DNA from: Candidatus Omnitrophota bacterium
GTDB lineage: Bacteria > Omnitrophota > Gorgyraeia > Duberdicusellales > 4484-171
Assembly (NCBI GenBank): GCA_021735655.1
Contig: JAIPGM010000005.1
Coordinates: 1 to 64,000 of the forward strand
Direction: 5' to 3'
Length of the DNA stretch: 64,000 nucleotides
In this document: one piece after another, positions 21,229 to 38,864 of the stretch
How positions within the stretch are numbered: position 1 is the stretch's first letter
Layout of the letters: every line of letters begins with the position of its first letter
Notes under the pieces: model-generated
What the model saw: only the letters and a program-made list of their open reading frames with translations
Told to the model about the DNA's origin: nothing
Databases searched by the model: none
Program-made: the position numbers and the translations under genes

Positions 21229-21570
21229 TTACCCTATAGCATCACTTCCTCGCTCTCCGGTCCTTATTCTAATGCACTCCGGTAAATCTAATACAAATAT
21301 CTTGCCATCACCGATTGTACCGGTTTTAGCCCCTTTAATTATCGCTTTAACCGTAGGTTCGACAAAATCCTTATTTACGGCTATTTCAAGACGCACTTTT
21401 TTTAAAAGATTAACCTCATGGATGACGCCCCTATAGGTTTCGGTGTAGCCTTTCTGCTGACCACAACCTAAAGCATTAGAAACAGTCATCTTGTGAACAT
21501 CGGCATCAAAGAGAGCCTGTTTAACATCTGATAATTTATGCGGCTGAATCATTGCAATTACTAACTTCAT
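21229..21570 (-). CDS. glnB: PII nitrogen regulatory protein.
   Basis: 113 aa GlnB/GlnK fold ([13 protein letters not shown]..., T-loop [12 protein letters not shown]). His replaces the Tyr51 uridylylation site. 14-nt gap after amt. Confidence 0.9.
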
Positions 21571-21584
21571 GGTTTACCTCCCTG

Positions 21585-22931
21585 TTATTTAGTAGTAAAT
21601 ATTTCAAATCCAGAATAAGTCTCCATGCCATGCTGGGTGATATCTAAACCCTTTAACTCTTCTTCCCTGGATACTCTCAAGCCGATAAACCGGTCAATCA
21701 GCTTAAACACGGTAAACATCACAACTGACACAAAACTGACGACGGCTAAAACACCCAAAGCCTGAACGCCTAACTGAGCAATACCACCGCCATGAATCAA
21801 ACCATCGCGGGCTAAACCCAATGATTTATGGCCAAAAATACCAACAGCTAAAGTACCCCAAACACCATTCATCATATGTACCGGAACCGCTCCCACCGGA
21901 TCATCAACTCTAATCTTATCAAGAAAAACAGTGCCGACAACCACAATAATACCGCCGATAGCTCCAATAATCATAGCCTCTAAAGGAGTTACAAAGGCAC
22001 AAGGCGCAGTTATCGCCACCAAACCGGCTAAAGCTCCGTTCATAGTCATAGTTAAATCCGGCTTGCCAAACTTTTTCCAGTTAAAAAACATAGCCGATAA
22101 AGCTCCCGCAACTGCAGCCATATTAGTAGTAACAGCAACATGAGCTATTTGACTGCCATCGCCAACACTCAAAGTTGAACCGGGATTAAAACCAAACCAA
22201 GCAAACCATAAAATTAAGGTCCCCAACGATGCTAAAGTCATAGAATGCCCCTCAATAGCATTGGCTGATCCATCTTTATTGAACTTACCAATACGCGGCC
22301 TCAATACAATTGTCCCCATAAGGGCTGCTGTGCCGCCTACAGCGTGAACTACGCTCGATCCGGCAAAATCGGCAAAATTTAAATTACTGAGCCAACCGCC
22401 GCCCCAAATCCAATGGCCAATTATCGGATAAACTGTGGCTGAAATTAAAAATGAATATATAAGATACGCTTTAAACTTCATTCTTTCGGCTACACCACCA
22501 GCAACTATAGTTGCTGCGGCTCCGCAGAATACAGCGTGAAAAAACCAAGCCGCATAGAGAGGCAAATGTCCATCATGAGCGGCATTAACCATAAACCAAC
22601 CCTTAAAGCCCATAAAACCATTTCCGGCGCCAAACATTATGGCATAACCAAATATGAAAAATCCCACAGAAGCCATACAAAAATCTAAAAAGTTATTCAT
22701 CAACACATTACAAGTATTTTTAGCCCTAATTAACCCCGCTTCCAACATACCAAATCCAGCCTGCATGATAAAAACCATGAAGGCTGCAATCATAACCCAA
22801 AGAGTATCAATTCCAGCTACCGTAGCGTAAGCCGTATTCTCATCGGCAAAAACCGACCCTAAAGCCACGGAACTAATTACTCCTAAAAATAATACCGCCG
22901 AAACTAACTTTTTAATTTTTTTTATCTTCAT
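21585..22931 (-). CDS. amt: Ammonium transporter (Amt family), copy 1.
   Basis: 448 aa with signal peptide and 11 TM helices. Amt signatures; 60-70 % similar to copy 2. Confidence 0.92.
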   Translation of the reverse strand: MKIKKIKKLVSAVLFLGVISSVALGSVFADENTAYATVAGIDTLWVMIAAFMVFIMQAGFGMLEAGLIRAKNTCNVLMNNFLDFCMASVGFFIFGYAIMFGAGNGFMGFKGWFMVNAAHDGHLPLYAAWFFHAVFCGAAATIVAGGVAERMKFKAYLIYSFLISATVYPIIGHWIWGGGWLSNLNFADFAGSSVVHAVGGTAALMGTIVLRPRIGKFNKDGSANAIEGHSMTLASLGTLILWFAWFGFNPGSTLSVGDGSQIAHVAVTTNMAAVAGALSAMFFNWKKFGKPDLTMTMNGALAGLVAITAPCAFVTPLEAMIIGAIGGIIVVVGTVFLDKIRVDDPVGAVPVHMMNGVWGTLAVGIFGHKSLGLARDGLIHGGGIAQLGVQALGVLAVVSFVSVVMFTVFKLIDRFIGLRVSREEELKGLDITQHGMETYSGFEIFTTK

Positions 22932-22982: not shown

Positions 22983-24329
22983 TTATTGAGTAGTAAAAAT
23001 TTGAAACCCTGAGTATGCTTCCATACCATGCTCATCGATATCTAAACCTTTTAACTCTTCTTCTTTGGATACTCTTAAGCCTATAGTAGCTTTAACTATT
23101 TTAAAAAGGATCAAAGCTGTACCAAACACCCAAGCAAACACCGACACAACACCAATTAGCTGAGTAATAAATTGGCCTATACCCCCACCAAAAAATAAAC
23201 CATCAACTCCACCATAAGATTTTTGGGCAAATAATCCTGCAGACAGTGTCCCCCAAGCGCCACACACACCATGAACCGATACGGCGCCGACCGGATCATC
23301 GATATGAAGCACCTTGTCTATAAATTCAACACTCAACACAACAAGAATGCCGCCGATAGCGCCAATTATGATTGCGCTTAAGGGTGAAACGTTAGCACAA
23401 GGAGCAGTTATCGCTACCAATCCAGCAAGTGCACCATTTAAAGCCATGCTAGTATCCGGCTTACCAAATCTTATCCAAGCCGTAAACATAGCTGCAGTAG
23501 CTCCGGCTGCAGCTGCTAAATTTGTAGTTACCGCAATTACAGCAATACTTAAATCTGTCCCCGCAGTTGTGCTTCCGGCATTAAATCCAAACCATCCAAA
23601 CCAAAGAATAAACACACCCAAAGCTGCCAAAGGGATACTATGACCAGGAATAGCATTTGATGAACCATCTTTATTATATTTGCCAAGTCTAGGGCCAAGC
23701 ATCATTGCTCCGGCTAAAGCTGCCCAACCGCCGACCGAATGAACCACAGTTGAACCAGCAAAGTCAATCATTCCCTTAGCTGATAACCAGCCACCACCCC
23801 AAATCCAATGTCCGGCAACCGGATAAATTATGGCCGTAATAAAAACACTGTACCAAAGATAACCGCTGAACTTTGTTCTTTCAGCCATAGCTCCGGAAAC
23901 TATTGTGGCCGCGGTAGCGGCAAACACTACTTGAAACATCCAAAAAGCAAATTGCCACAAACCATCAGCAGTAGCCGGATTAGCTGCACTCAAAAAAAAT
24001 CCGTCTTTGCCAAAAAGGCCAAAAGTACTGGTTCCAAACATTATGCCAAAGCCAACAGCCCAATAGGTAATTGAACCAACTGAAAAATCCATAAGGTTCT
24101 TCATCATAATGTTACAAGCATTTTTGGCCCGGGTAAAACCGGTCTCAACCATGGCAAAGCCGGCTTGCATAAAAAATACCAAGAATGCTGCGACCAAAAC
24201 CCATACTGTATCAATAGAAACAGCGTTGCTGGCTGAAGTTGCCTCCTCAGCAAAAGCCGAGAAGCTCAACCCCAATAGCACAATACCGATACTAAACATT
24301 AATGATAATTTTTTTAGTTTTATTAACAT
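22983..24329 (-). CDS. amt: Ammonium transporter (Amt family), copy 2.
   Basis: 448 aa with signal peptide, an Amt-family paralog, in tandem with copy 1. Confidence 0.92.
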   Translation of the reverse strand: MLIKLKKLSLMFSIGIVLLGLSFSAFAEEATSASNAVSIDTVWVLVAAFLVFFMQAGFAMVETGFTRAKNACNIMMKNLMDFSVGSITYWAVGFGIMFGTSTFGLFGKDGFFLSAANPATADGLWQFAFWMFQVVFAATAATIVSGAMAERTKFSGYLWYSVFITAIIYPVAGHWIWGGGWLSAKGMIDFAGSTVVHSVGGWAALAGAMMLGPRLGKYNKDGSSNAIPGHSIPLAALGVFILWFGWFGFNAGSTTAGTDLSIAVIAVTTNLAAAAGATAAMFTAWIRFGKPDTSMALNGALAGLVAITAPCANVSPLSAIIIGAIGGILVVLSVEFIDKVLHIDDPVGAVSVHGVCGAWGTLSAGLFAQKSYGGVDGLFFGGGIGQFITQLIGVVSVFAWVFGTALILFKIVKATIGLRVSKEEELKGLDIDEHGMEAYSGFQIFTTQ

Positions 24330-24344
24330 AAGGATACCTCTCTC

Positions 24345-25136
24345 TTAGAATCCGTAGCTAACTTCAAAACCACCCCATAATTCTTCATCACCATTATTAA
24401 TCTCTTCTTCATGATTAATCGTATAGTGCAAACTAGGAGTTAGACTGAAACCACCCAAAGCATAAGAAGTTGATAATGAAAGTTCAGTCGCATAAAGCGA
24501 GCTAGGTTCAAGATCGGCAACTCCGTCATTGCCCCAGTTAACTACTCCTAAGGCAAGAGTTTGTCCTTCTTGAATTAAAGAATGCTTCAGAAGCGGGAGT
24601 TCAGCATCAAAACCCCAAGAATAATACCAACCCTCATCAGGACCACCGGATTTGGCTTGAAAATCATAGCCGGCAAAAAAGCTTGCTGAAACGTCAATTG
24701 GAAGAAAAGGTATTTTATTCAAGGTTCCGGAAAGCCAAGACTCAGAAACATCAGCCGTGCTGGCTGTATTAGGAAAGTCAAAGTAAGTATATCCGGTTGA
24801 AAAATTAAATTGATCATCGAATAGATCTCGAGAAAAAGTTACAGTATAATCAAGCTCTTCGCCGTCTTCATGCCCACTATTCATCGGAAATGATCCCCAG
24901 ACATTGAATGAAAGGTCAACCCCATCGATAAGCCCAGGAAATCCAATATCAATACTCGGCTGGTGTGCTCCATCATTATCGCTATAGAGATCTTGCCCAC
25001 GCCAGATATATCTAGAAACATAAGTATCAGTTACGGTAACCTCAACCGGCTGGCCAGCAAACTCAAAAGCATAAATATCCCCTAAAAAAATAACACTAAA
25101 TATTATATTCATTAACCAAACTGATATTTTTTTCAT
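24345..25136 (-). CDS. Putative outer-membrane beta-barrel protein (porin-like), first gene of the amt operon.
   Basis: Signal peptide, alternating amphipathic beta-strand pattern, aromatic-rich, C-terminal ...SYGF. 15-nt gap to amt. Confidence 0.6.
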   Translation of the reverse strand: MKKISVWLMNIIFSVIFLGDIYAFEFAGQPVEVTVTDTYVSRYIWRGQDLYSDNDGAHQPSIDIGFPGLIDGVDLSFNVWGSFPMNSGHEDGEELDYTVTFSRDLFDDQFNFSTGYTYFDFPNTASTADVSESWLSGTLNKIPFLPIDVSASFFAGYDFQAKSGGPDEGWYYSWGFDAELPLLKHSLIQEGQTLALGVVNWGNDGVADLEPSSLYATELSLSTSYALGGFSLTPSLHYTINHEEEINNGDEELWGGFEVSYGF

Positions 25137-25149
25137 AATTTTCTCCCTT

Positions 25150-25200
25150 AAAAATAAAAAAGCGCATTATTCCAAATATCCACCTTTGGAATAACACGCC
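25150..25200 (-). terminator. Intrinsic-terminator-like hairpin plus U-run in the 5' leader immediately upstream of the OMP-amt operon RBS.
   Basis: On the minus strand: GCGUGUUAUUCCAAA-(loop)-UUUGGAAUAAUGCGC (~14 bp stem) followed by UUUUUUAUUUUU, then the RBS AAGGGAG and ATG. There is no room for a promoter between the terminator and the start. Confidence 0.6.
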
Positions 25201-25245
25201 TTTGTGTTTTTACTTAACCTCTACAATCAATTAAGTAAAAAAACT

Positions 25246-25758
25246 CTATCTTTGGTAACCTTTATTTTTCCATTTTTGAACTATTTTCTTTTTATGCTTA
25301 ATAATCATAACATGAGAACAATCAAGCTCTTTGGCTATTTCACGAACAGTATATCCTTTCAACAAATAAGACAAAACCGATTTATCCTTATCAGTTAAAC
25401 CTAAACTATTAATTTCATCAATCGTAAGATTATGATCTATATTTGGTATAAAGTCGGCTTTTTCATCCTTAAGAATATCGCCCAAGGTTTGTCCATTAGG
25501 AGAAATTAACTTATCCAAGCTTGAAATATTCGCCTTAGGCCTACCTTTTCTTAAGAAATTCTGTAGATGAAACTCACAGCCCTTAATTACATAGGCTTGA
25601 TTAATGCCGATCGGCAACCCATTAGAATAATTTTCCCAAAGATAAAGACACATCTCTTGGTATAGATCTTCCTCACTATAAAAACCACGCAGCAAATGCT
25701 TGCGTGCAACAAATCTTAAGCTGGGAGTTATTTTTTCTAATAATATCCTAAAGTCCAT
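25246..25758 (-). CDS. Small sigma-70-family (ECF-like) sigma factor or sigma-like regulator.
   Basis: 170 aa. Region-2-like DLYQEMCLYLWENY. Region-4 HTH LLKGYTVREIAKELDCSHVMIIKHKKKI. Confidence 0.6.
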   Translation of the reverse strand: MDFRILLEKITPSLRFVARKHLLRGFYSEEDLYQEMCLYLWENYSNGLPIGINQAYVIKGCEFHLQNFLRKGRPKANISSLDKLISPNGQTLGDILKDEKADFIPNIDHNLTIDEINSLGLTDKDKSVLSYLLKGYTVREIAKELDCSHVMIIKHKKKIVQKWKNKGYQR

Positions 25759-25777: not shown

Positions 25778-25818
25778 CAAAAAGCCCCCATTAGACTTCT
25801 TATTGTCTAGTGAGGGCT
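25778..25818 (-). terminator. Terminator/attenuator-like hairpin in the leader of the sigma-like gene.
   Basis: On the minus strand: AGCCCUCACUAGAC-(loop)-GUCUAAUGGGGGCU (13/14 pairs) followed by UUUUUG. It lies 20 nt upstream of the RBS and downstream of a candidate extended -10. Confidence 0.55.
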
Positions 25819-25848
25819 TCTTTGCCAAAATTAACTTCTTTGTTATTA

Positions 25849-29547: not shown

Positions 29548-29639
29548 TCTTGTCTCCCCTTACCCTTACATTCTGTCAATTTTTCAAAAATAGCACAGAA
29601 AATAAAAAAACGCCTTTTCTTTGCGCTGCTGTGCAAAAA

Positions 29640-29672
29640 AAAGACGTCCTTGTCTCCTGTATAAATATACCA
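29640..29672 (-). promoter_or_regulatory. Candidate sigma70-like promoter (TTGACA-16-TATATT) upstream of the nfnA-nfnB-gdhA unit.
   Basis: Minus strand: cacTTGACAattcgatttagattggTATATTtatac, about 100 nt upstream of the nfnA start, followed by a structured leader. Confidence 0.4.
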
Positions 29673-29698: not shown

Positions 29699-30400
29699 TC
29701 AGTCTTTTTTTATTTCTTGAGCTAAGATAACTGCCTCAGCAATTTCCTTCATCGAAACCCGCTTGTCCATACTTATCTTTCTTATTAAAGCATAGGCTTT
29801 ATCTTCGGTTAATTTTTGCTGATTCATCAAAATGCCTTTGGCCCGCTCGATCTTTTTACGGGCCTGAAGCTCTTCCTGAACTATCTGAGTCTTAACCATT
29901 AACTCCGTATTCTCAATAGCAACTGCGGCCTGATTAGCCACAGTACTGAGAAGCTTAATGTCGCCTTTGGTGAACTTATACTCTGTAGTCGTATAGCAGT
30001 TAATAACTCCGACTGCTCTTCGCTTAACCATCATCGGCACACTAAGCATTGAAACCAACCCTAGCAATTTAGCCAGCTTTTTTTCTTTATAGCTCTTATC
30101 TTTGGAAACATCTAAAATAGTTATCGGTTTTTTGTCATGAGCAACCAGACCGACTATACCTTCGCCTATCTTTAAACTCCGCTCCTTTAAATATTCGCTA
30201 TTTAAAGCCTGGGTAGCTCTTATTTTTAACTCTTTTTTCTTATCATCTAAAAGCCATAAAGCACAAATCTTGGCCTTCATTACATTAGCAGTTAAAGTTA
30301 CTATCAACTTCAATACGTCTTCCAAATATAAATCAGAAGTAATAGCAATGCTAATTTTACTTAAAGTATCGATGTAAGCTTTGTAAGAAGTTTTTGGCAT
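29699..30400 (-). CDS. GAF-ANTAR RNA-binding antitermination regulator.
   Basis: 233 aa. N-terminal GAF-like domain. The C-terminus (ELQARKKIERAKGILMNQQKLTEDKAYALIRKISMDKRVSMKEIAEAVI) is a typical ANTAR coiled-coil/helical domain. Confidence 0.8.
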   Translation of the reverse strand: MPKTSYKAYIDTLSKISIAITSDLYLEDVLKLIVTLTANVMKAKICALWLLDDKKKELKIRATQALNSEYLKERSLKIGEGIVGLVAHDKKPITILDVSKDKSYKEKKLAKLLGLVSMLSVPMMVKRRAVGVINCYTTTEYKFTKGDIKLLSTVANQAAVAIENTELMVKTQIVQEELQARKKIERAKGILMNQQKLTEDKAYALIRKISMDKRVSMKEIAEAVILAQEIKKD

Positions 30401-30410
30401 AATATTTTAT

Positions 30411-30890
30411 TTACCGACCTAAGCGCAGTTCAAATTGACTCGTTCCGTCAGATAAAAGAACTGTGCTCGGGGTAATTTCGATTATAGTCTTTTTACCAAC
30501 CTGATCACCTAGCCCGACTATTCTATCGTCAATTACTGCCTTCGGATCTTTTTCATTCCAAATAATACCACCAAGGCTTAGCCCGCTGCCAATTACTTTA
30601 GTTTCAATCCGATTTTGAGTAAAAGGGTCTCTTTTTAAAGCAAGCAGCCTGGTCTCTTCTTCTAGTTTTTGATACAACCCTTCAGTTAGTTGCTTGGCAA
30701 CAGTATTTGGATACAAAGTATTATAAGGTATATTGCTATCTTCTTGCTCAGTTAAAACAGTAGATTCCAATGTTTTTTTTCTACGCTCCTGAACCTTCTG
30801 AACAGTTTTCTTAGCATTACCAATAGCCATAATCAATATTAGCACTAGGAAACCGGTAATTATGAGTTTTATTTTATCCTTCTTGCTCAT
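30411..30890 (-). CDS. Pilus assembly protein, PilP-like (tentative).
   Basis: 159 aa. N-terminal TM then a beta-rich domain. Position after PilO in the cluster. Confidence 0.4.
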   Translation of the reverse strand: MSKKDKIKLIITGFLVLILIMAIGNAKKTVQKVQERRKKTLESTVLTEQEDSNIPYNTLYPNTVAKQLTEGLYQKLEEETRLLALKRDPFTQNRIETKVIGSGLSLGGIIWNEKDPKAVIDDRIVGLGDQVGKKTIIEITPSTVLLSDGTSQFELRLGR

Positions 30891-30907
30891 GATTGCAATA
30901 CCTGTAT

Positions 30908-31492
30908 CTACGATAAAAGATAAATCTTGAAATCCAAACTAACTTTCAATTTTCTATCCTTAGCCGATGAGTCTTTGATAATCTCTATTCTCTCAACGGT
31001 CACCAAGGCTAAGAGCTCGCTCCTAAGCCTCTCGATGTATTGCACTAACTCTGTATATGTGCAGTTAATCTCAATAGCAACCAAAATACTTTGGCAAATT
31101 CTTTGACCTATTGCTAGAGCCTCCTTTTTGCCTTGGAGAACTGCTTGCTTAGCTCCCGGCTTAAAAGAAATAATACTAATATTCGACTGACGAGCTAAAT
31201 CAGAAATCTTACTTAAAGCCTCCTCTTCCTTGACTGGAAACTTACCCTCTAGGGCTGAGAATCTTTCTTTAAGCAGAGTTATCCCTTTTTCTAAAGAGCC
31301 TGCTTCCAGGGCTATTTTTTCAATGTCTGAAACCTCTTTCTCGATATTTGCAAGTTCTAACTTTAAGGCTGCTACTTTCTTACGGCTAGGGCTATAAATT
31401 AATGACCAAAAAATTATAAAAGCTAACAAAACAATAACAGTGATGATTATTATCTTTTTTTGACTCTGAGTTATTTGATTTAAACTTATCAT
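30908..31492 (-). CDS. Type IV pilus assembly protein PilO-like.
   Basis: 194 aa. N-terminal TM plus coiled coil plus C-terminal domain. Synteny after PilMN. Confidence 0.55.
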   Translation of the reverse strand: MISLNQITQSQKKIIIITVIVLLAFIIFWSLIYSPSRKKVAALKLELANIEKEVSDIEKIALEAGSLEKGITLLKERFSALEGKFPVKEEEALSKISDLARQSNISIISFKPGAKQAVLQGKKEALAIGQRICQSILVAIEINCTYTELVQYIERLRSELLALVTVERIEIIKDSSAKDRKLKVSLDFKIYLLS

Positions 31493-31506
31493 GAACTTAA
31501 TTATTA

Positions 31507-33135
31507 CTAATCTGCCAACTCACAAGCTAGTTCAAATTTTTGGATCGAACCTTCTTTTTTTGAAGAAGTTAAACCAGCTTCAATAAAAAAGGCTGAACTC
31601 TCCAACCGCTGCATAAATTTAGATAAAACTGTTTCGGACAATTCACCGCTTGCTAAAACATGACCCCGGAGAGTCAAGTTACTTCTCTCCTGATTAAAAC
31701 TTACCTGATCTAAAATTACCTCATCAGGAACTAAAACACTTAATAACTTAAGTAAACCATCGGCCGGAACCTTTCCGATCTGCAATTGATTAACCAAGGC
31801 TTCTCTGGCTAGAATACCCTGCCTAAGAGTCCTCACTTCGCTAATAGTTTCAAGGTGGGCTTTAGCATTAAAAATTCTAACCTTATAACTAGCCTCTTGA
31901 GACTTAAGAATCAATACCGCAAAAAAGAATAAAGCCGCTATGGTTATCGCTGAAACTCGCAACGATACTGTCTGGATTAATTCTGACTTTTGAGCTTTTA
32001 TCTCTTTAGGGAGCAGGTTAATTGCTGTCGCAGAAAAAAGAACCGCCCCAAGATTATTTAGCAGCTGAAGACGAGAATTATCTAACTTATCCTGGCCGAT
32101 CTCGCCAAAATCAAAGTTTTCAAGAAAAGGCAAGCTTAAAACTTCCAAAGATAACTCTTTGGCCAGGTAACTATCTAAATTTTTTAAATTAGCGCCACCG
32201 CCAACCAAGTACAGCTTGGAAGAAATCTCTTGATCAAGCTCAGAAACAAAATAATCAAAACTACGTTTTAATTCTTTAGCTAGAATCTCTAAATGTGGCC
32301 GCATCAAAGAAATAACTTGAATCGCCTCAATATTGCCCTTGATAGCCTGGTTTTGACTTTTCGGAAAACCAAAGGTCTGCTTTATCTCCTCGGCCTCGGC
32401 ATAACTAAGTTGAACTTTTCCTTTATCGGAAATAAGCGTTCCGGTTAAGTCTTGGGTAAGCTTTTCTGAAGAAAAAGGTATTTTTCGAGAAAATTTCAAA
32501 GTATTATTAAGATAAATATAGAGACTACTCTGGTTGTAGCCAATATCAAGGATACTTTCAACTTTAAAACTTTCCGGCTGAGACTTTAAAATATTGCTAT
32601 AATTAAAAGGCGCTAAGGAAACCTTTGATGGGGTAATATTGCATTCTTTTAATACCGATATATATTCATTAACCGCTTCTGCGTTAGCGACAGCAAAAAC
32701 TATCTCGTTTTTCTTTACTTGCTCTTGATCGGTAAATTCTCTAATAACCTGCCACTCAATAGTCGCATCTTTTAAATCGAAGTTAAGCTCATCTTTCAGC
32801 TGCCACTTAGCTGCTCCGATAATTTCAGCCTTAGGTAAAACCGGCAACTCAAGATTTTTTATTACTATTGAATCCGGGTCGGAAATAGTTAAACAAACTT
32901 GGGCTTCCAAGATAGAATTTCTTTCTAAGAAAGATTTAATCAGCGCTATTAAGTCATCTTTTGTCTGATTAGTTAAAGATATTTTCTCAATTAATAAATC
33001 TTTGAGCTTAAACCTATTCCTGTATGGTTCTAAAAAAGAAATCTTTAAAAAAGCCTGGCCAAACTCAATAGATACCACTACCTTCGGCTTTTTTTGAAAA
33101 ATACTAGTTAAATTTGCAATAAGCCCATTAACCAT
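31507..33135 (-). CDS. PilM-PilN fusion protein (actin-like ATPase fold plus TM/PilN-like C-terminal part).
   Basis: 542 aa. A TM segment around residue 390 separates a ~380-aa PilM-like region from a ~150-aa PilN-like tail. Confidence 0.6.
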   Translation of the reverse strand: MVNGLIANLTSIFQKKPKVVVSIEFGQAFLKISFLEPYRNRFKLKDLLIEKISLTNQTKDDLIALIKSFLERNSILEAQVCLTISDPDSIVIKNLELPVLPKAEIIGAAKWQLKDELNFDLKDATIEWQVIREFTDQEQVKKNEIVFAVANAEAVNEYISVLKECNITPSKVSLAPFNYSNILKSQPESFKVESILDIGYNQSSLYIYLNNTLKFSRKIPFSSEKLTQDLTGTLISDKGKVQLSYAEAEEIKQTFGFPKSQNQAIKGNIEAIQVISLMRPHLEILAKELKRSFDYFVSELDQEISSKLYLVGGGANLKNLDSYLAKELSLEVLSLPFLENFDFGEIGQDKLDNSRLQLLNNLGAVLFSATAINLLPKEIKAQKSELIQTVSLRVSAITIAALFFFAVLILKSQEASYKVRIFNAKAHLETISEVRTLRQGILAREALVNQLQIGKVPADGLLKLLSVLVPDEVILDQVSFNQERSNLTLRGHVLASGELSETVLSKFMQRLESSAFFIEAGLTSSKKEGSIQKFELACELAD

Positions 33136-33375
33136 AAGTTTTTACTACATAGTAAGCAATAAACAATAATAAAATAGAAATTAGAATGCTCGAAACTCCT
33201 ATACCAACCCTTAAATTATAAACTGTTTCTTCAAAGGATACAAGGGCTTTATTGGTATACTCGGAAATCAATCTAAGTGTATCTGGGCAAATAAACAAAA
33301 CCATACCAAAAAAGGAAGGAAACTAAACCTACAACTATTTAAAAAACCATCATAGACCTCCTTTTATAAATATTA

Positions 33376-33972
33376 CTAAAAACTTTTAATTTCTACACTC
33401 TGGGTAAGGTCAACTGAACCTTGAAAATCATCAAAGTTGCCGGTTGCGGTTTTAACAGTAATACTAATGATTACTCGCCGGATATCGGTTAAAGCATCCA
33501 CCCCTAAAACCCAATCAGCATCAGAAGCCTTTTTATAACTAAAAATAACTCCTGTAGTATCCTTACCGTCAATAGTAAGTTCGGTTGGAATATAGTAAGG
33601 TACAACTGATTCAGCTGACCAGCTCCCACCACTATTGGTGCTAATTGAGCGGTAAATATGACCGTCACCACTGTCCCAACGAAACCGAACTGAAAGCACA
33701 ACTGCCGGGTAACCATAACTATAAGAAAATTGGGTACTCGAAGCATCGATTATGCTCCGAGTGTATCTTAAGCCCCGGGCATCAGGCGTACCCTCAATCA
33801 TTAGATTGCTAATTTCTTGAGCAATTTTTTGACAATCAAGCTGCCGCGGACTATAAATAAATAACTGAACAAAAAAAATCATCGCTCCAGCTACTACAGC
33901 AGCGACAATTGAAACTATCAACATAGTCATTATTAACTCAATTAAGGTCTCGCACTTTTTTATTTTTACCAT
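33376..33972 (-). CDS. Minor pseudopilin / type IV pilin-like protein.
   Basis: N-terminus ...ETLIELIMTMLIVSIV is a class III (prepilin) signal-like hydrophobic helix. Confidence 0.6.
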   Translation of the reverse strand: MVKIKKCETLIELIMTMLIVSIVAAVVAGAMIFFVQLFIYSPRQLDCQKIAQEISNLMIEGTPDARGLRYTRSIIDASSTQFSYSYGYPAVVLSVRFRWDSGDGHIYRSISTNSGGSWSAESVVPYYIPTELTIDGKDTTGVIFSYKKASDADWVLGVDALTDIRRVIISITVKTATGNFDDFQGSVDLTQSVEIKSF

Positions 33973-34733
33973 GAGTAAGCTGTGGTTTCAGTTGCATCGC
34001 TCATTACAAACACTAGACTACTAACTGAGCTTAAATTTTTACTAAAAGTAAATAGACCAGTATTGTTATACGTTGCTCCAGCCGAAAGAGTAAAATTAGT
34101 ATCAAAAGTGATAGTTGATCCTGAACTCTGAGTACCGCTCCACCTTTGAGAACCGTCCATAGTAATAGTTTTAACCTTTATGCCGCTTGCACCGCTAAAA
34201 CTGATAGTTACTCCAGTAATAGTTATGCCGCTGCCACCAGTATTCTCTAAGGTAATATTCTGTAAATTCTTAGCCACTATACTTCCTCCGGATACTGCCA
34301 ATGAGTCTGCTTCGTTGCCACCCACCCCAGCAACGCCTCCACCGCTTCCAGAACCAAAAGAAGCATTAGCCAAGTAAGTGACTACTCTTGCTAGTTGGCT
34401 CGCGCTACCGCCCTCATAAACCGTAACTACAACTTTCTTTAAGGTACTGTTTGAACCAACAACAAAATCAACTTCACGTCTTAAATCCTGACTATAGCCC
34501 TCATAATTTGAAGTATTAGTATCATAACCATCAGCTAGAGTAATATTATCATAGGCTAAGCTATTAATCTTAGACATCTCAGTTTTAGCTAAACCTTCAG
34601 CAACCAACAGTTGACGAGAATAAGCTATTGAACGTATGTACTCCATAGTCATAATACTGCTTGGTATCACCACTATTGCTATAATTACTATAGCGATAAT
34701 TAACTCAATAAGGGTAACGCTCTTTCTTATCAT
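33966..34733 (-). CDS. Minor pseudopilin.
   Basis: N-terminus KSVTLIELIIAIVIIAIVV, a prepilin-type motif with Glu at +5. Ser/Gly/Thr-rich. Confidence 0.6.
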   Translation of the reverse strand: MIRKSVTLIELIIAIVIIAIVVIPSSIMTMEYIRSIAYSRQLLVAEGLAKTEMSKINSLAYDNITLADGYDTNTSNYEGYSQDLRREVDFVVGSNSTLKKVVVTVYEGGSASQLARVVTYLANASFGSGSGGGVAGVGGNEADSLAVSGGSIVAKNLQNITLENTGGSGITITGVTISFSGASGIKVKTITMDGSQRWSGTQSSGSTITFDTNFTLSAGATYNNTGLFTFSKNLSSVSSLVFVMSDATETTAYSW

Positions 34734-35500
34734 GGCAGTATGTGATCCTGTGATTCTTCCCAGGAGACAATCTTGCTAGTTCCTATATCATAAGCTGCCT
34801 TAAGAGTACGTCTCCAGGTATAATTTGTGACTATCTTACCAGTAGAAGTTATATTCATAACATTATCAGAAGTAAGACCAGAGTTTAAAAGCATAACTTC
34901 AACCGTACTCCCATCGCTAAAAGTAATAACTGCTGTAATAGTCATGGGAGTAATATCGCTGCCTATTTCCCAATCCAACCAAACATCATTCTCAGTTGTA
35001 CCAGCCGGTATTGTAAAATCAGCCATGTCAATGTTAGTTCCACTCTGAGCGGTTCCAGTCCACTCAGCAGTTGCCCGACCCAAATCTATACTAATTAAGT
35101 TCTCACCGGCATCAGGGGTCCAGCTTACCTGCACATGAGTTATAGTAAGATCACCACCGCTAACATTGGTCATGCTAACATTTTTCAATTTTCGATTAGC
35201 AATTATGTTTGTGGTGCTTGAATCAGCAATAAAAAACATGCCTGAGCCGCCAAAAGAATAATAAGTATTTGGGTCTATCGCAATATCGGCTTGAGCGCTA
35301 ACTAAACCATCAGCTTCGTAGTCAGCTACTGCCGCCATAACTCCGGCCTGAGCAGCATAAAAAGCCTTTTGCTGATCAATGCTAGCGATATTATACTCTA
35401 AGGCTTGACTTATATAGACTACAATACCTAAGGCTACTATAGCCATTAAAACAACTATAATGATTACTGCAATTAAAGCAAAACTCTTATGTTTGATCAT
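34730..35500 (-). CDS. Minor pseudopilin (PilX/GspK-like, lacks Glu+5).
   Basis: N-terminus KSFALIAVIIIVVLMAIVALGIVV. Overlaps the neighbouring pseudopilin. Confidence 0.55.
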   Translation of the reverse strand: MIKHKSFALIAVIIIVVLMAIVALGIVVYISQALEYNIASIDQQKAFYAAQAGVMAAVADYEADGLVSAQADIAIDPNTYYSFGGSGMFFIADSSTTNIIANRKLKNVSMTNVSGGDLTITHVQVSWTPDAGENLISIDLGRATAEWTGTAQSGTNIDMADFTIPAGTTENDVWLDWEIGSDITPMTITAVITFSDGSTVEVMLLNSGLTSDNVMNITSTGKIVTNYTWRRTLKAAYDIGTSKIVSWEESQDHILP

Positions 35501-35591
35501 TGTTAACTAACAATAATGACAGTAAAAAGGGGGCAGAGAAATTAGAATGTTAATTTTCTGCCCCCTGCTTCTTCATAATCAATTAAACTCT

Positions 35592-35969
35592 TTATTGAAA
35601 CGTTCCGTTGGCAACAGTGTAGTTGTAAACAGTACCGGTCGGACCAGTATAGTTAACACCTGAGGCCCTGCTCCAATCCTGAGTTACTCCTTGAGCCAAT
35701 ACATTCTCAAAGCAAGGATCAGCTACGCTGCAAGTAGTATTATTATTATCCCCAAGAGTAGTCGGCCAAGCACAAGTCCCACCGGCACAAGCATTAGCAT
35801 AAAAAGTTGCTATGCCAGAGCGCACACCGCCGATTATACCCTTCTCGGCAGCTATCTGGGCTTGAGATTGAAGATCGTAGTATTTAGGAATAGCTACCGC
35901 AGCTAAGATTCCCAAAATAACAATGATCATGATTAGCTCGATCAAAGTAAAACCTTTTCTCATAAACAC
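35592..35969 (-). CDS. Major type IV pilin / GspG-like pseudopilin.
   Basis: MFMRKGFTLIELIMIIVILGILAAVAIP is a canonical prepilin N-methylation motif. 125 aa, Cys-rich C-terminus. Confidence 0.85.
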   Translation of the reverse strand: MFMRKGFTLIELIMIIVILGILAAVAIPKYYDLQSQAQIAAEKGIIGGVRSGIATFYANACAGGTCAWPTTLGDNNNTTCSVADPCFENVLAQGVTQDWSRASGVNYTGPTGTVYNYTVANGTFQ

Positions 35970-35973
35970 CTCC

Positions 35974-37191
35974 TTATCGTTTAAAAATTGCCATTAAATT
36001 CCACATTGGTAAAAATATTCCCAGAGCCATAAAAAGAACACCACAGCCTAAAACAAGTATCATTATCGGCTCAATCAAGGAACTAAAATTTTCAATTGTA
36101 TATTCAATCTGGCTATCGTAATAGTCAGAAACAAATAAAAGTAGTTCATCAACTCTACCGGAATCTTCACCTACTGCAACCATTTGAGTTACTACCGGAG
36201 CAAACATTCCACTCTTCTTCATTGGATTGGCAATTCCCTCTCCCTCATTGACCGAAGTCCGGATATCATTTATCGTCTTTTCAATCACTGCATTGCCTAT
36301 ACCACCGGAAGAAAGCTCCAAAACCCGCAAAATTGGCACGCCTGAATGCATCAGAGTGCCGGTGGCCCGGCAGAAACGAGACATATACATTTTCAAAAAT
36401 AACGGCCCAAAAACCGGAACCTTTAATTTAAATTTATCCCATAAAAATCGCCCGCCTTTCGTATTGATATATTTGTAAAAAGAAAAAATAACTATACCTA
36501 ACAAAATCCCGGTAAGCCACCAATATTGACTGACCGCAGTATTAATCCAAATAAGCACCCGGGTTGGTAAAGGTAAAACTATATTAGCCGCTGAGTAAAT
36601 CTTAACAAAACGAGGAATTACAAAAATGATCAGAATAAAAAAAGCAATCGCCATAGCGCAAACTACCATCATCGGATAACGAGTTGCGCTCTTAATCTGC
36701 ATCTTTATTTTTTCTTCATGGACTCCTAAGGCGCTTAAGCGCTCTAAGGATTCACCTAGGGTTCCACTTTCCTCAGCCGACTTAAGCATATTAGTATAAA
36801 GCGGACTGAAAACTTTCGGGTGTCTCTCAAGAGCGCTTGATAAGTCATTGCCCTCTCTTATTTCTCGAGACACCGCTTCTAAGGTTTTTTTAAAAAGTTT
36901 ATTACTAGTTTGATCACCGAGTGCCACTAGGCTTGAAAGAATAGTTACTCCAGCCCGTTGCAAAGTTGCAAACTGACGAGTAAACATATTAATTTCAGAA
37001 AGTTTAACCTTTTTAAACCGGCGTAACAACTCATTTAAAAAATTAGCTTCCTTACTCGACTCTTCTATAGTTACAGGCAAATAGTCCATTTCTTTAAGCT
37101 TATTAGCAACTGCATTTTCGGTTTCAGCTTCCATTGAACCGGTGACCAGCTTACCTTGTTTGTCGCGAGCCTTGTATTGAAATTCAGCCAT
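35974..37191 (-). CDS. Type IV pilus / T2SS inner-membrane platform protein (PilC/GspF).
   Basis: 405 aa with the duplicated GspF-domain architecture and three TM helices. Confidence 0.85.
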   Translation of the reverse strand: MAEFQYKARDKQGKLVTGSMEAETENAVANKLKEMDYLPVTIEESSKEANFLNELLRRFKKVKLSEINMFTRQFATLQRAGVTILSSLVALGDQTSNKLFKKTLEAVSREIREGNDLSSALERHPKVFSPLYTNMLKSAEESGTLGESLERLSALGVHEEKIKMQIKSATRYPMMVVCAMAIAFFILIIFVIPRFVKIYSAANIVLPLPTRVLIWINTAVSQYWWLTGILLGIVIFSFYKYINTKGGRFLWDKFKLKVPVFGPLFLKMYMSRFCRATGTLMHSGVPILRVLELSSGGIGNAVIEKTINDIRTSVNEGEGIANPMKKSGMFAPVVTQMVAVGEDSGRVDELLLFVSDYYDSQIEYTIENFSSLIEPIMILVLGCGVLFMALGIFLPMWNLMAIFKR

Positions 37192-38864
37192 TACTTAACC
37201 TTGGTTACCTTTAATACTTCTTCCGCTGTAGTAATACCCTGACTTACCTTCTCTAAGCCGTCCTCGCTTAAGGTTTTTATCCAACCTGAGGCTACGGCCC
37301 TTTCTAATATCTTATCAGCTGATTGTTTTTCATTAACCATATTGCGTATCTCATCGTTAATAGTGAAAAACTCATAGATTCCAGTTCTTCCCATAAATCC
37401 AGTATTATCGCATTTTTTGCAACCCTTGCCACGATAAAATAAATTCTTGATTTTAACACCTAAATCTTTCAAAATAGACTCTGATGGTTTATACTCTTCT
37501 TTACACTTATCACAAATTACTCTCACTAATCTTTGAGCAATAACCCCAATAACCGAGCTAGAAACTAAAAACGGTTCAACCCCCATATCAACCAAACGGG
37601 TTAAAGATGATACAGCATCATTAGTGTGTAGTGTCGAAAGAACCAAATGTCCGGTAAGCGAAGCTCTAATTGCAATCTCAGCGGTTTCCTTATCACGAAT
37701 TTCACCAACCATAATCACATCCGGATCCTGACGCAAAATTGCTCGAAGACCTTCAGCAAAAGTAACACCAATTTTAGAATTTACCTGGGTCTGGCGTATT
37801 AAAGGCAATTCATATTCAACTGGATCCTCAATAGTAATAATATTTTTATCAATTGAATTAATAGTAGTTAGAGCTGCATAAAGAGTAGTAGTTTTTCCGC
37901 TTCCGGTAGGCCCAGTTACTAGAATAATTCCATTAGGCCGATGGATAAGTTTATTAAGTGCCTCTAGACTTTCATTAGATAAACCTAGATCTTTAAGCCC
38001 TAAAACAACTGACGACTTATCTAAAATTCTCATTACCACATTCTCTCCGTGAACTGTCGGAAAAGTTGAAACTCTGATGTCAATATCCCGATTTTCTATC
38101 TTTAAACGAATTTTTCCATCTTGGGGCCGGCGATTCTCAGCAATATCTAAATTAGCCAAAATTTTAATTCGCGAGGTTAAAGCTCGATTTAAGGCTTTGG
38201 GTAAATTGTGGGACTCACGGAGAACTCCATCAACTCGGTTGCGGACCAGTAAAGTTTTAGCTTCTGGTTCAATATGAATATCCGAAGCCCGTTCCTTCAC
38301 TGCCTTAGAAATAATTAAGCTAACCAATTTTACTACCGGAGCTTCTTCGGCAATTTCAGCTAAATCCTTATCGTCCTTGACTGAAATTCTTTCAGTATCG
38401 ATAGAATCAACGATTTCGTCAACTGTAGATGAACCACCATAATAGATATCTAAAATCTTTTGAATCCCGGTCTCAGAGGCTACAACCGGATCAATAGCAT
38501 CCATCTGGCTCATCTTACGAGCCTGATCCAAAGCTACTATGTCCTGAGGGTTAAACATAGCTACGGTTAAACTAGTACCAACCTTAAATAAAGGCACCAT
38601 TTTATATTTTTTAGCTAATTTTTCAGGAATTAACTTGGTTAATTCTGAATCAATAACGTATTCGCCTAAATCCATATAGGGCACACCTAAAGCTTTAGCC
38701 CTAACTTCAGCAATACTTTCCTCACTGATAAACTTTAACTTTTCCAAAGCCTTAATAATCGAAAGGCCAGTACGCCTGGTCTCGATCGTTGCCTGATCGA
38801 GCTGTTCCTGAGTAATCAAATTCTCTTTTAGTAATAAATCAGCTATCTCTTGTTTTTTAGCCAT
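37191..38864 (-). CDS. Type IV pilus assembly / T2SS ATPase (PilB/GspE).
   Basis: 557 aa. N-terminal GspII_E_N domain, Walker A GPTGSGKTTT, and a C-terminal tetracysteine CDKC...CKKC. Confidence 0.9.
   Translation of the reverse strand: MAKKQEIADLLLKENLITQEQLDQATIETRRTGLSIIKALEKLKFISEESIAEVRAKALGVPYMDLGEYVIDSELTKLIPEKLAKKYKMVPLFKVGTSLTVAMFNPQDIVALDQARKMSQMDAIDPVVASETGIQKILDIYYGGSSTVDEIVDSIDTERISVKDDKDLAEIAEEAPVVKLVSLIISKAVKERASDIHIEPEAKTLLVRNRVDGVLRESHNLPKALNRALTSRIKILANLDIAENRRPQDGKIRLKIENRDIDIRVSTFPTVHGENVVMRILDKSSVVLGLKDLGLSNESLEALNKLIHRPNGIILVTGPTGSGKTTTLYAALTTINSIDKNIITIEDPVEYELPLIRQTQVNSKIGVTFAEGLRAILRQDPDVIMVGEIRDKETAEIAIRASLTGHLVLSTLHTNDAVSSLTRLVDMGVEPFLVSSSVIGVIAQRLVRVICDKCKEEYKPSESILKDLGVKIKNLFYRGKGCKKCDNTGFMGRTGIYEFFTINDEIRNMVNEKQSADKILERAVASGWIKTLSEDGLEKVSQGITTAEEVLKVTKVK

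Follow-up and report, generated by a model that had tools for sequence, protein, structure and literature searches.

A putative acidic outer-membrane beta-barrel encoded ahead of the ammonium transporter genes in Candidatus Omnitrophota

The window in this study is a stretch of 64,000 nucleotides (nt) of Candidatus Omnitrophota DNA (GenBank assembly GCA_021735655.1, contig JAIPGM010000005.1, positions 1 to 64,000), and our subject is a gene on its minus strand, here called the porin gene, that precedes the genes of two ammonium transporters and a P-II protein. A sequence-only reading of the window had drawn attention to an open reading frame (ORF) of 263 amino acids (aa), located 15 nt before two amt genes, whose product begins with a signal peptide and ends in Phe. 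Each of these features can be read from the sequence itself.

The porin gene, its operon and its leader

The porin gene and the genes that follow it are listed below.

24345..25136 (-): porin gene, encoding a putative 12-stranded outer-membrane beta-barrel of 263 aa (ATG start, C-terminus ...EVSYGF)
25068..25136 (-): signal peptide, aa 1-23, MKKISVWLMNIIFSVIFLGDIYA (from sequence; predicted cleavage before FEF)
24990..25016 (-): best-conserved motif of the family, S-R-Y-I-W-R-G-Q-D (aa 41-49), within the first loop, which is ordered and joins strands 1 and 2
24348..24377 (-): C-terminal strand WGGFEVSYGF with terminal Phe, of beta-signal type (last strand, 251-262, in the model)
24330..24344 (-): 15-nt spacer from the porin stop to the amt1 start, GAGAGAGGTATCCTT (direct reading)
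22983..24329 (-): amt1, ammonium transporter (PF00909, E 1.9e-135)
21585..22931 (-): amt2, ammonium transporter (PF00909, E 7e-130), after a 51-nt gap from amt1
21229..21570 (-): glnK, P-II protein (PF00543, E 1.8e-27), 14 nt past amt2

The stop codon TAA of the porin gene lies at 24347..24345 and the start codon of amt1 at 24329..24327, and the spacer between them contains the ribosome-binding site (Shine-Dalgarno sequence) of amt1, GAGAGAGG. A terminator scan found no terminator between the porin gene and the amt genes. The two transporters are 56% identical to each other (BLASTP), and glnA is the next gene past glnK, after a gap of 201 nt. From this arrangement we infer that the porin gene is the first cistron of the amt1-amt2-glnK unit and is co-transcribed with it. 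The possibility that 24345..25136 is a mobile or chance ORF was rejected because it has 101 homologues (E down to 1e-131) and a conserved gene order.

The unit forms part of a nitrogen-assimilation supercluster encoded on a single strand. Upstream of the porin gene are genes for a GAF-ANTAR protein, a pair of GltD-like oxidoreductases, gdhA and a 170-aa regulator; from the porin gene on, the order is porin, amt1, amt2, glnK, glnA, a class-I amidotransferase, gltB, gltD and carB. Genes for type IV pilus or type II secretion assembly adjoin the cluster at 30411..38864 (-), among them a PilM-PilN fusion, a PilO-like ORF, the platform protein T2SSF and the ATPase T2SSE. The elements that may govern expression of the porin gene are as follows.

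25137..25245 (-): leader of 109 nt between the 170-aa regulator gene and the porin gene, with a promoter-like element, hairpins P1 and P2, a terminator and a ribosome-binding site
25239..25211 (-): promoter-like TTTACT-N17-TAAGTA (from sequence; putative promoter)
25179..25208 (-): tandem pair of hexaloop hairpins, AACAC-AAAGGC-GTGTT then TCC-AAAGGT-GGA, each with loop positions A1 and G4
25148..25203 (-): intrinsic terminator with a 19-bp stem and U-tract (terminator scan)
25149..25143 (-): ribosome-binding site of the porin gene, AAGGGAG (from sequence)
25246..25758 (-): 170-aa regulator directly upstream of the porin gene, with weak matches to sigma-70 region 2 and to a region 4/LuxR-type helix-turn-helix
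29699..30400 (-): GAF-ANTAR RNA-binding antiterminator (PF13185 1e-19, PF03861 1.3e-19), 4.5 kb upstream

The terminator has a predicted folding energy of -25.2 kcal/mol (RNAfold; z = -6.2 versus shuffles) and ends 21 nt ahead of the porin start codon. Because its 5' arm overlaps both P1 and P2, the hairpin fold and the terminator fold exclude each other. Dual hairpins with A1/G4 hexaloops and an overlapping terminator are the published architecture of ANTAR targets, which have been reported 5' of P-II and ammonium transporter genes (PMC3369931). All of the published features are found here: tandem A1/G4 hexaloops, an overlapping terminator and an ANTAR protein encoded in the genome. By the anatomy of its leader, the porin gene of the window genome comes first behind an attenuator of nitrogen type. 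The leader is thus a putative target of ANTAR control, and the GAF-ANTAR protein at 29699..30400 is its probable regulator.

An Rfam scan of 18-32 kb found no known RNA family. The exact pattern AAAGGY...AAAGGY was not significant alone, with 2 hits in the window and as many in 48 of 100 shuffles. A stricter descriptor of a dual hexaloop plus overlapping terminator gave 1 hit against a shuffle mean of 0.7 and missed the leader, its rules for stem length and arm start being too narrow.

For comparison we collected 109 loci in total by a genome scan, a metagenome scan seeded with the family alignment A4, and exact look-ups. Of the 19 orthologous Omnitrophota loci examined, most have a similar pair of hairpins together with a terminator; none was found in L033, only partial versions in L004 and L009, and in L001 and L005 a glnK-like gene comes first, directly before the porin gene, with no hairpins just upstream. 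An unbiased test of 18 leaders returned ACAAAG, AGACGT/CGTCTT and the TTTACTT element as enriched k-mers. In L002, L003, L004, L035 and L039, a GAF-ANTAR homologue with 74-76% identity is encoded upstream of the porin gene at a distance of at most 1.5 kb.

The 170-aa regulator scores 1.9e-8 for PF00196 and 2.5e-9 for TIGR02937, the latter under the TIGR02937 cutoff. In 15 related loci (L004, L006-L008, L010-L013, L029, L031-L035 and L039), neighbour clustering places a homologue of it directly 5' of the porin gene, and a conserved promoter-like sequence, GGTTACCA..TAG..TTTACTTAA (-35 TTTACT, N16-17, TAAGTA), is seen 3' of the regulator gene across related loci. Two further candidate pairs of hexaloop hairpins, each with a T-run after it, lie within the cluster of the window: TAAC-AAAGAA-GTTA / GGC-AAAGAA-GCC at 25815..25845 (-), between gdhA and the 170-aa sigma-like gene, and GAC-AAGGAC-GTC ... 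GC-ACAGCA-GC at 29605..29658 (-), between the ANTAR gene and the GltD-like pair. These candidates suggest that an ANTAR regulon may span the entire nitrogen cluster.

The predicted barrel and its family

The N-terminus of the porin-gene product (the window protein) consists of MKK, a hydrophobic core and IYA followed by FE at the cleavage point; it is of Sec type by sequence and has no lipobox Cys. An AlphaFold2 model built from a 47-sequence family alignment (mean pLDDT 90.4, pTM 0.82) has a helix at residues 2-18 (the signal), a low-confidence linker at 19-22, and then 12 long antiparallel strands that form a closed barrel with an even number of strands. Searched against the PDB with Foldseek, the model matched outer-membrane barrels only, including OmpG, Tsx, the COG4313 channel, PcoB and KdgM; LpxR, OMPLA and autotransporter barrels were also among the matches. 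The Sec signal peptide and the C-terminal aromatic beta-signal of BAM substrates are both present, and F263 is kept in at least 90% of the 47 family members. We confidently predict that the window protein is an outer-membrane beta-barrel, with a putative outer-membrane location and a putative open pore.

This prediction agrees with the sequence-only reading, which had called the protein an outer-membrane beta-barrel and named structure prediction as one way to check it. Its placement of the gene as first cistron of the amt operon likewise held, given the leader upstream and the 15-nt coupling to amt1-amt2-glnK. The diderm envelope that it had deduced is consistent with the model, though not new for the phylum Omnitrophota.

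The mature protein is strongly acidic, with 38 D/E against 6 K/R, a net charge of about -32 and a pI of 4.05. When the strand residues are assigned by alternation, the polar faces carry E32, D63, D74, E94, D96, D104, E132, D158, D177, E179, E252 and E258 and no basic residue. These faces presumably line the lumen. Acidity is common to the family: the median net charges of its groups range from -21 to -27, with the amt-linked clade at -27. Within the best-conserved motif, Y43, W45, R46 and G47 are near-invariant and D49 is invariant in alignments A1 and A4, and the motif also aligns in the Bacteroides and Prevotella proteins. In the model the loop that carries it may line or constrict the pore.

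Curated models do not recognise the window protein. Pfam gave no family even at E <= 1, so that the PF09694 threshold was missed, and NCBIfam gave no match at E <= 1, TIGR02001 included. A PDB sequence search returned no match and a PDB profile search noise only (E about 0.2), and tblastn against a plasmid collection found none. The 101 closest homologues, of which MCF7908227.1 is 100% identical to the window protein, are nearly all hypothetical proteins from Candidatus Omnitrophota metagenome-assembled genomes. A Pfam assignment is absent in 100 of them; P0101, which is PF09694-positive, was hit by the window protein at E 3.6e-15. The Omnitrophota relatives have no PF09694 or TIGR02001 score.

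The family hidden Markov model (from A1) reached further. Against 1.84 billion cluster representatives it matched 1287 clusters, defined at 50% identity, at E <= 1e-3. PF09694 (Gcw_chp) was matched by 52 of the 91 distant hits sampled; one distant relative matched MipA (PF06629), and others YaiO or DUF2490. Some hits of the A3 profile are called 'uncharacterized protein (TIGR02001 family)'. At the N-terminus, the S-x-Y-[IM]-[WF]-R-G motif of the window protein aligns with PF09694-positive sequences. By these profile alignments, the window protein is a divergent branch of the superfamily labelled Gcw_chp or 'TorF family putative porin', beyond the reach of the curated models. It resembles Gcw_chp/TIGR02001 proteins in size (about 240-270 aa), signal peptide, all-beta fold and N-terminal motif. 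Because the PF09694 and TIGR02001 thresholds were missed, we file it as a divergent relative and not as an annotated member of that family, which is known but has no assigned function. Literature searches for Gcw_chp, TIGR02001, TorF or FrrB returned no relevant paper, and none on a link to amt or kdp. The Rhodobacter 'TorF' is FleT, an unrelated flagellar regulator.

Among barrels of known structure, KdgM, NanC and VhGalP share the 12-stranded monomeric fold of the modelled window protein, whereas no sequence relation is detectable: identity in structural alignments is 9-12%, and there is no match to the KdgM Pfam model or to a PDB sequence. The pores of KdgM and NanC carry basic residues and pass acidic sugars, in contrast to the net charge of about -32 of the window protein.

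Gene neighbourhoods of the relatives

Among close relatives the arrangement is constant: amt lies directly downstream of the porin gene, followed by glnK, in 18 of the 18 with enough downstream DNA. These are all 12 genome loci (L001-L012), all five judgeable metagenome loci (L030 and L032-L035) and L029. In a quick neighbour-joining tree the amt-linked close relatives form one clade with L029 basal. Several contigs with the Omnitrophota-type nitrogen cluster, namely L001 (JAIWAR010000015.1), L002, L004, L008, L009, L012, L013 and P0064, were deposited under other names ('Methanosarcinales archaeon', 'Thermoproteota archaeon' and 'uncultured Planctomycetia'), which probably reflect errors of binning or taxonomy.

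A sister clade of paralogues with 42-57% identity lacks the amt linkage. Depending on the member, the genes downstream encode solute-binding proteins and Cache/HAMP/PAS kinases, or a methyltransferase, or else NikR is encoded upstream. In L014 (6743..9555) and L017 (1498..5930), for instance, the paralogue is followed by periplasmic SBP_bac_3/NMT1 binding proteins and Cache/HAMP/PAS histidine kinases, and this combination of porin, binding protein and sensor is a recurrent module among sister paralogues. Ahead of the Omnitrophota paralogue P0094 (42% identical; L027/L028, 4196..5810) lie the gene of a nickel-responsive regulator of NikR type and a 95-aa ORF, which hints that other family members may serve other cations.

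More distant relatives (25-35% identity) adjoin amt in four of 44 judgeable loci. Their usual neighbours are FolC-like ligases and HAMP/CHASE kinases, and 24 relatives have sensor or regulator genes directly upstream, mostly HAMP/CHASE kinases. The linkage to amt reappears in other lineages. In the bacterium BMS3Bbin09 (hhalign probability 98.1%) the order is HTH_8-porin-amt-PII-HTH_8-amt-PII-amt; in Bacteroides finegoldii it is porin-PII-amt-GSIII, in Prevotella glnK-amt-porin, and Sedimentisphaerales L025 and the metagenome loci L042, L096, L098 and L099 also hold amt-linked members. The BMS3Bbin09 array (L113, 200..7252) has 57-aa Fis-type HTH_8 ORFs before its amt units, and a Nitro_FeMo-Co gene adjoins it. 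The amt linkages in BMS3Bbin09, Bacteroides, Prevotella, Sedimentisphaerales and these metagenome loci, which come in differing gene orders, are independent.

The sequence-only reading had asked whether homologues are linked to amt across genomes, and linkage was found in all judgeable close relatives and in several other phyla. It had also called the arrangement unusual, which stands for the literature and not for the genomes, where the porin-amt arrangement recurs.

In Bacteroidales, paralogues also occur inside potassium uptake operons in the order kdpFABC-[porin]-kdpD (B. finegoldii, P. distasonis and B. fragilis), in B. fragilis only 2 nt from kdpC. The three genes, all annotated as hypothetical, are:

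L116, 5004..5774: kdp-embedded paralogue of P. distasonis
L118, 4501..5265: kdp-embedded paralogue of B. finegoldii
L119, 6001..6750: kdp-embedded paralogue of B. fragilis

One kdp-linked Bacteroidales protein carries the JGI label 'predicted porin'. By hhalign (probability 96.8-97.3% over the N-terminal motif region), the same superfamily includes the Bacteroides protein listed as 'hypothetical protein / predicted porin (FrrB)'; some of its close homologues match PF09694, and like the window protein it is embedded with a high-affinity uptake system for a monovalent cation. It differs in its partner, which is Kdp (K+), and in sequence, with below 30% identity alignable over about 70-100 residues; it is likewise uncharacterised. 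No kdp linkage was seen in any Omnitrophota or Planctomycetota-like locus. As for the source of these sequences, L115-L118 (NZ_OY7259xx, PLSDB) are filed as 'plasmid 28/45/59/89' of Bacteroides/Parabacteroides TSDC17.2-1.1 and typed as non-mobilizable; they carry the core chromosomal genes kdp, glnA, dapF, guaA and asnB and look like chromosome fragments filed as plasmids. To our reading of the literature found, the recurrent partnership of this uncharacterised family with Amt and Kdp is undescribed and is new here.

Possible function and alternatives

Because relatives in other phyla adjoin ammonium or potassium pumps, the window protein probably forms a channel for small cations in the outer membrane, one not described before. 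Amt and Kdp, two different high-affinity systems for monovalent cations, have each recruited a member of this acidic barrel family, which favours a cation channel over a bystander. Cation selectivity is expected because the interior of the channel is strongly acidic, and NH4+ would be the physiological substrate. K+ is close to NH4+ in size.

We propose, as a reading with an even chance of being right, that the protein is a cation-selective outer-membrane channel that is expressed with Amt and feeds NH4+ into the periplasm under nitrogen limitation. The porin would be a monomeric 12-stranded channel with a strongly acidic interior, transcribed jointly with amt1-amt2-glnK from one leader. Under nitrogen scarcity the GAF-ANTAR protein would override the leader terminator. 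The channel would then concentrate NH4+ and pass it into the periplasm, and probably do so for methylammonium too, so that the permeability of the outer membrane would not limit the high-affinity Amt at micromolar ammonium.

OprP and PhoE are porins of phosphate starvation: ion-selective outer-membrane pores that starvation induces together with high-affinity uptake at the inner membrane. By analogy, the logic proposed here would be the same. OprP and PhoE are, however, anion-selective trimers of 16 strands and unrelated in sequence, whereas cation selectivity is proposed for the window porin, which lies in the same operon as its transporter. Among porins with experimental support for ammonium uptake, the literature search found PorA alone. 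PorA of Methylotuvimicrobium buryatense 5GB1C facilitates ammonium uptake, and its authors stated that no ammonium- or ammonia-specific porin had been characterised (bioRxiv 10.1101/2025.01.28.635327). It differs from the window protein in being a classical porin of 402 aa and 16 strands that was identified by mutation and not by amt linkage, and no relation between the two was seen.

Several observations weigh against the proposed ammonium channel. Forty of the 44 judgeable distant relatives do not adjoin amt, and within the Omnitrophota clade the amt linkage is inherited synteny, not 18 independent events. Nothing in the sequence of the window protein is specific to NH4+. Just six modest positions set the amt-linked clade apart from its sister paralogues, so that no NH4+ site can be proposed. 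Since the acidity and the conserved residues are family-wide and the differences of the clade few, strict NH4+ specificity is weakened, and the dedication to ammonium/methylammonium raised by the sequence-only reading is at most plausible from the sequences. A generic small-cation pore tied to Amt fits equally well, because paralogues adjoin Kdp, NikR, binding proteins and kinases, or housekeeping genes. The conserved first loop of the model could plug the barrel, and some 12-stranded barrels are enzymes or lack a pore, LpxR and OMPLA being among the structural hits. For the superfamily as a whole, no solved structure or experimental data were found for any member.

It is unlikely, in our judgement, that the protein is a general non-specific small diffusion pore, induced with the nitrogen-stress regulon and passing many small nitrogen compounds and ions with no preference for NH4+. 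Members with unrelated neighbours do share the acidity and the conserved residues, few residues are peculiar to the amt-linked clade, and for SAR11 (OmpU, PMC3870248) and Kuenenia (PMC7438415) it has been proposed that nitrogen limitation raises non-specific porins. However, the family has been linked repeatedly and independently to high-affinity Amt and Kdp systems, in differing gene orders and phyla; a 240-aa barrel with a net charge near -30 speaks for a pore that selects strongly by charge; and the narrow pore of a 12-stranded monomer is ill suited to amino acids.

The barrel might instead be no solute channel, with a regulatory or historical link to amt. It could then be a receptor, an enzyme of the outer membrane, or a structural or scaffold protein like MipA/OmpV. 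This agrees with the matches of distant relatives to MipA, YaiO or DUF2490, with LpxR, OMPLA and autotransporter barrels among the structural matches, and with the highly conserved, ordered first loop, which could be a plug or an active site. We hold it improbable. More doubtful by far is an outer-membrane entry port that brings ligand to sensor domains or binding proteins of the periplasm, for sensing and not for uptake, and whose tie to Amt in the window locus is loose: the sister paralogues followed by solute-binding proteins and Cache/HAMP/PAS histidine kinases, the 24 relatives with sensor or regulator genes directly upstream and the Bacteroides kdp-linked copy directly before kdpD would suit it, whereas the window unit has no periplasmic sensor, its regulator is a cytoplasmic GAF-ANTAR protein, and the porin gene is translationally close-coupled to amt1.

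More tentatively than for the window protein, with somewhat less than an even chance, the idea of a cation channel may extend to the superfamily. Gcw_chp-like proteins would then be acidic 12-stranded channels for small monovalent cations that span phyla, with paralogues built into Amt and Kdp operons. In Omnitrophota, Bacteroidota, Planctomycetota and others the partner would be Amt, for NH4+, and in Bacteroidales it would be Kdp, for K+.

The usual assumption is that ammonium and potassium pass the outer membrane via general porins. If the proposal is true, these proteins would be the first outer-membrane channels dedicated to ammonium and potassium, and the passage of these ions across the outer membrane would be a regulated, rate-relevant step, not free diffusion through general porins. 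The porin-amt and porin-kdp operons suggest that many diderms invest in a matched outer-membrane entry when they scavenge NH4+ or K+. The idea is directly testable, since homologues occur in genetically tractable gut Bacteroides. With a channel role, a large family whose annotations read only 'hypothetical' or 'putative porin' would gain its first function.

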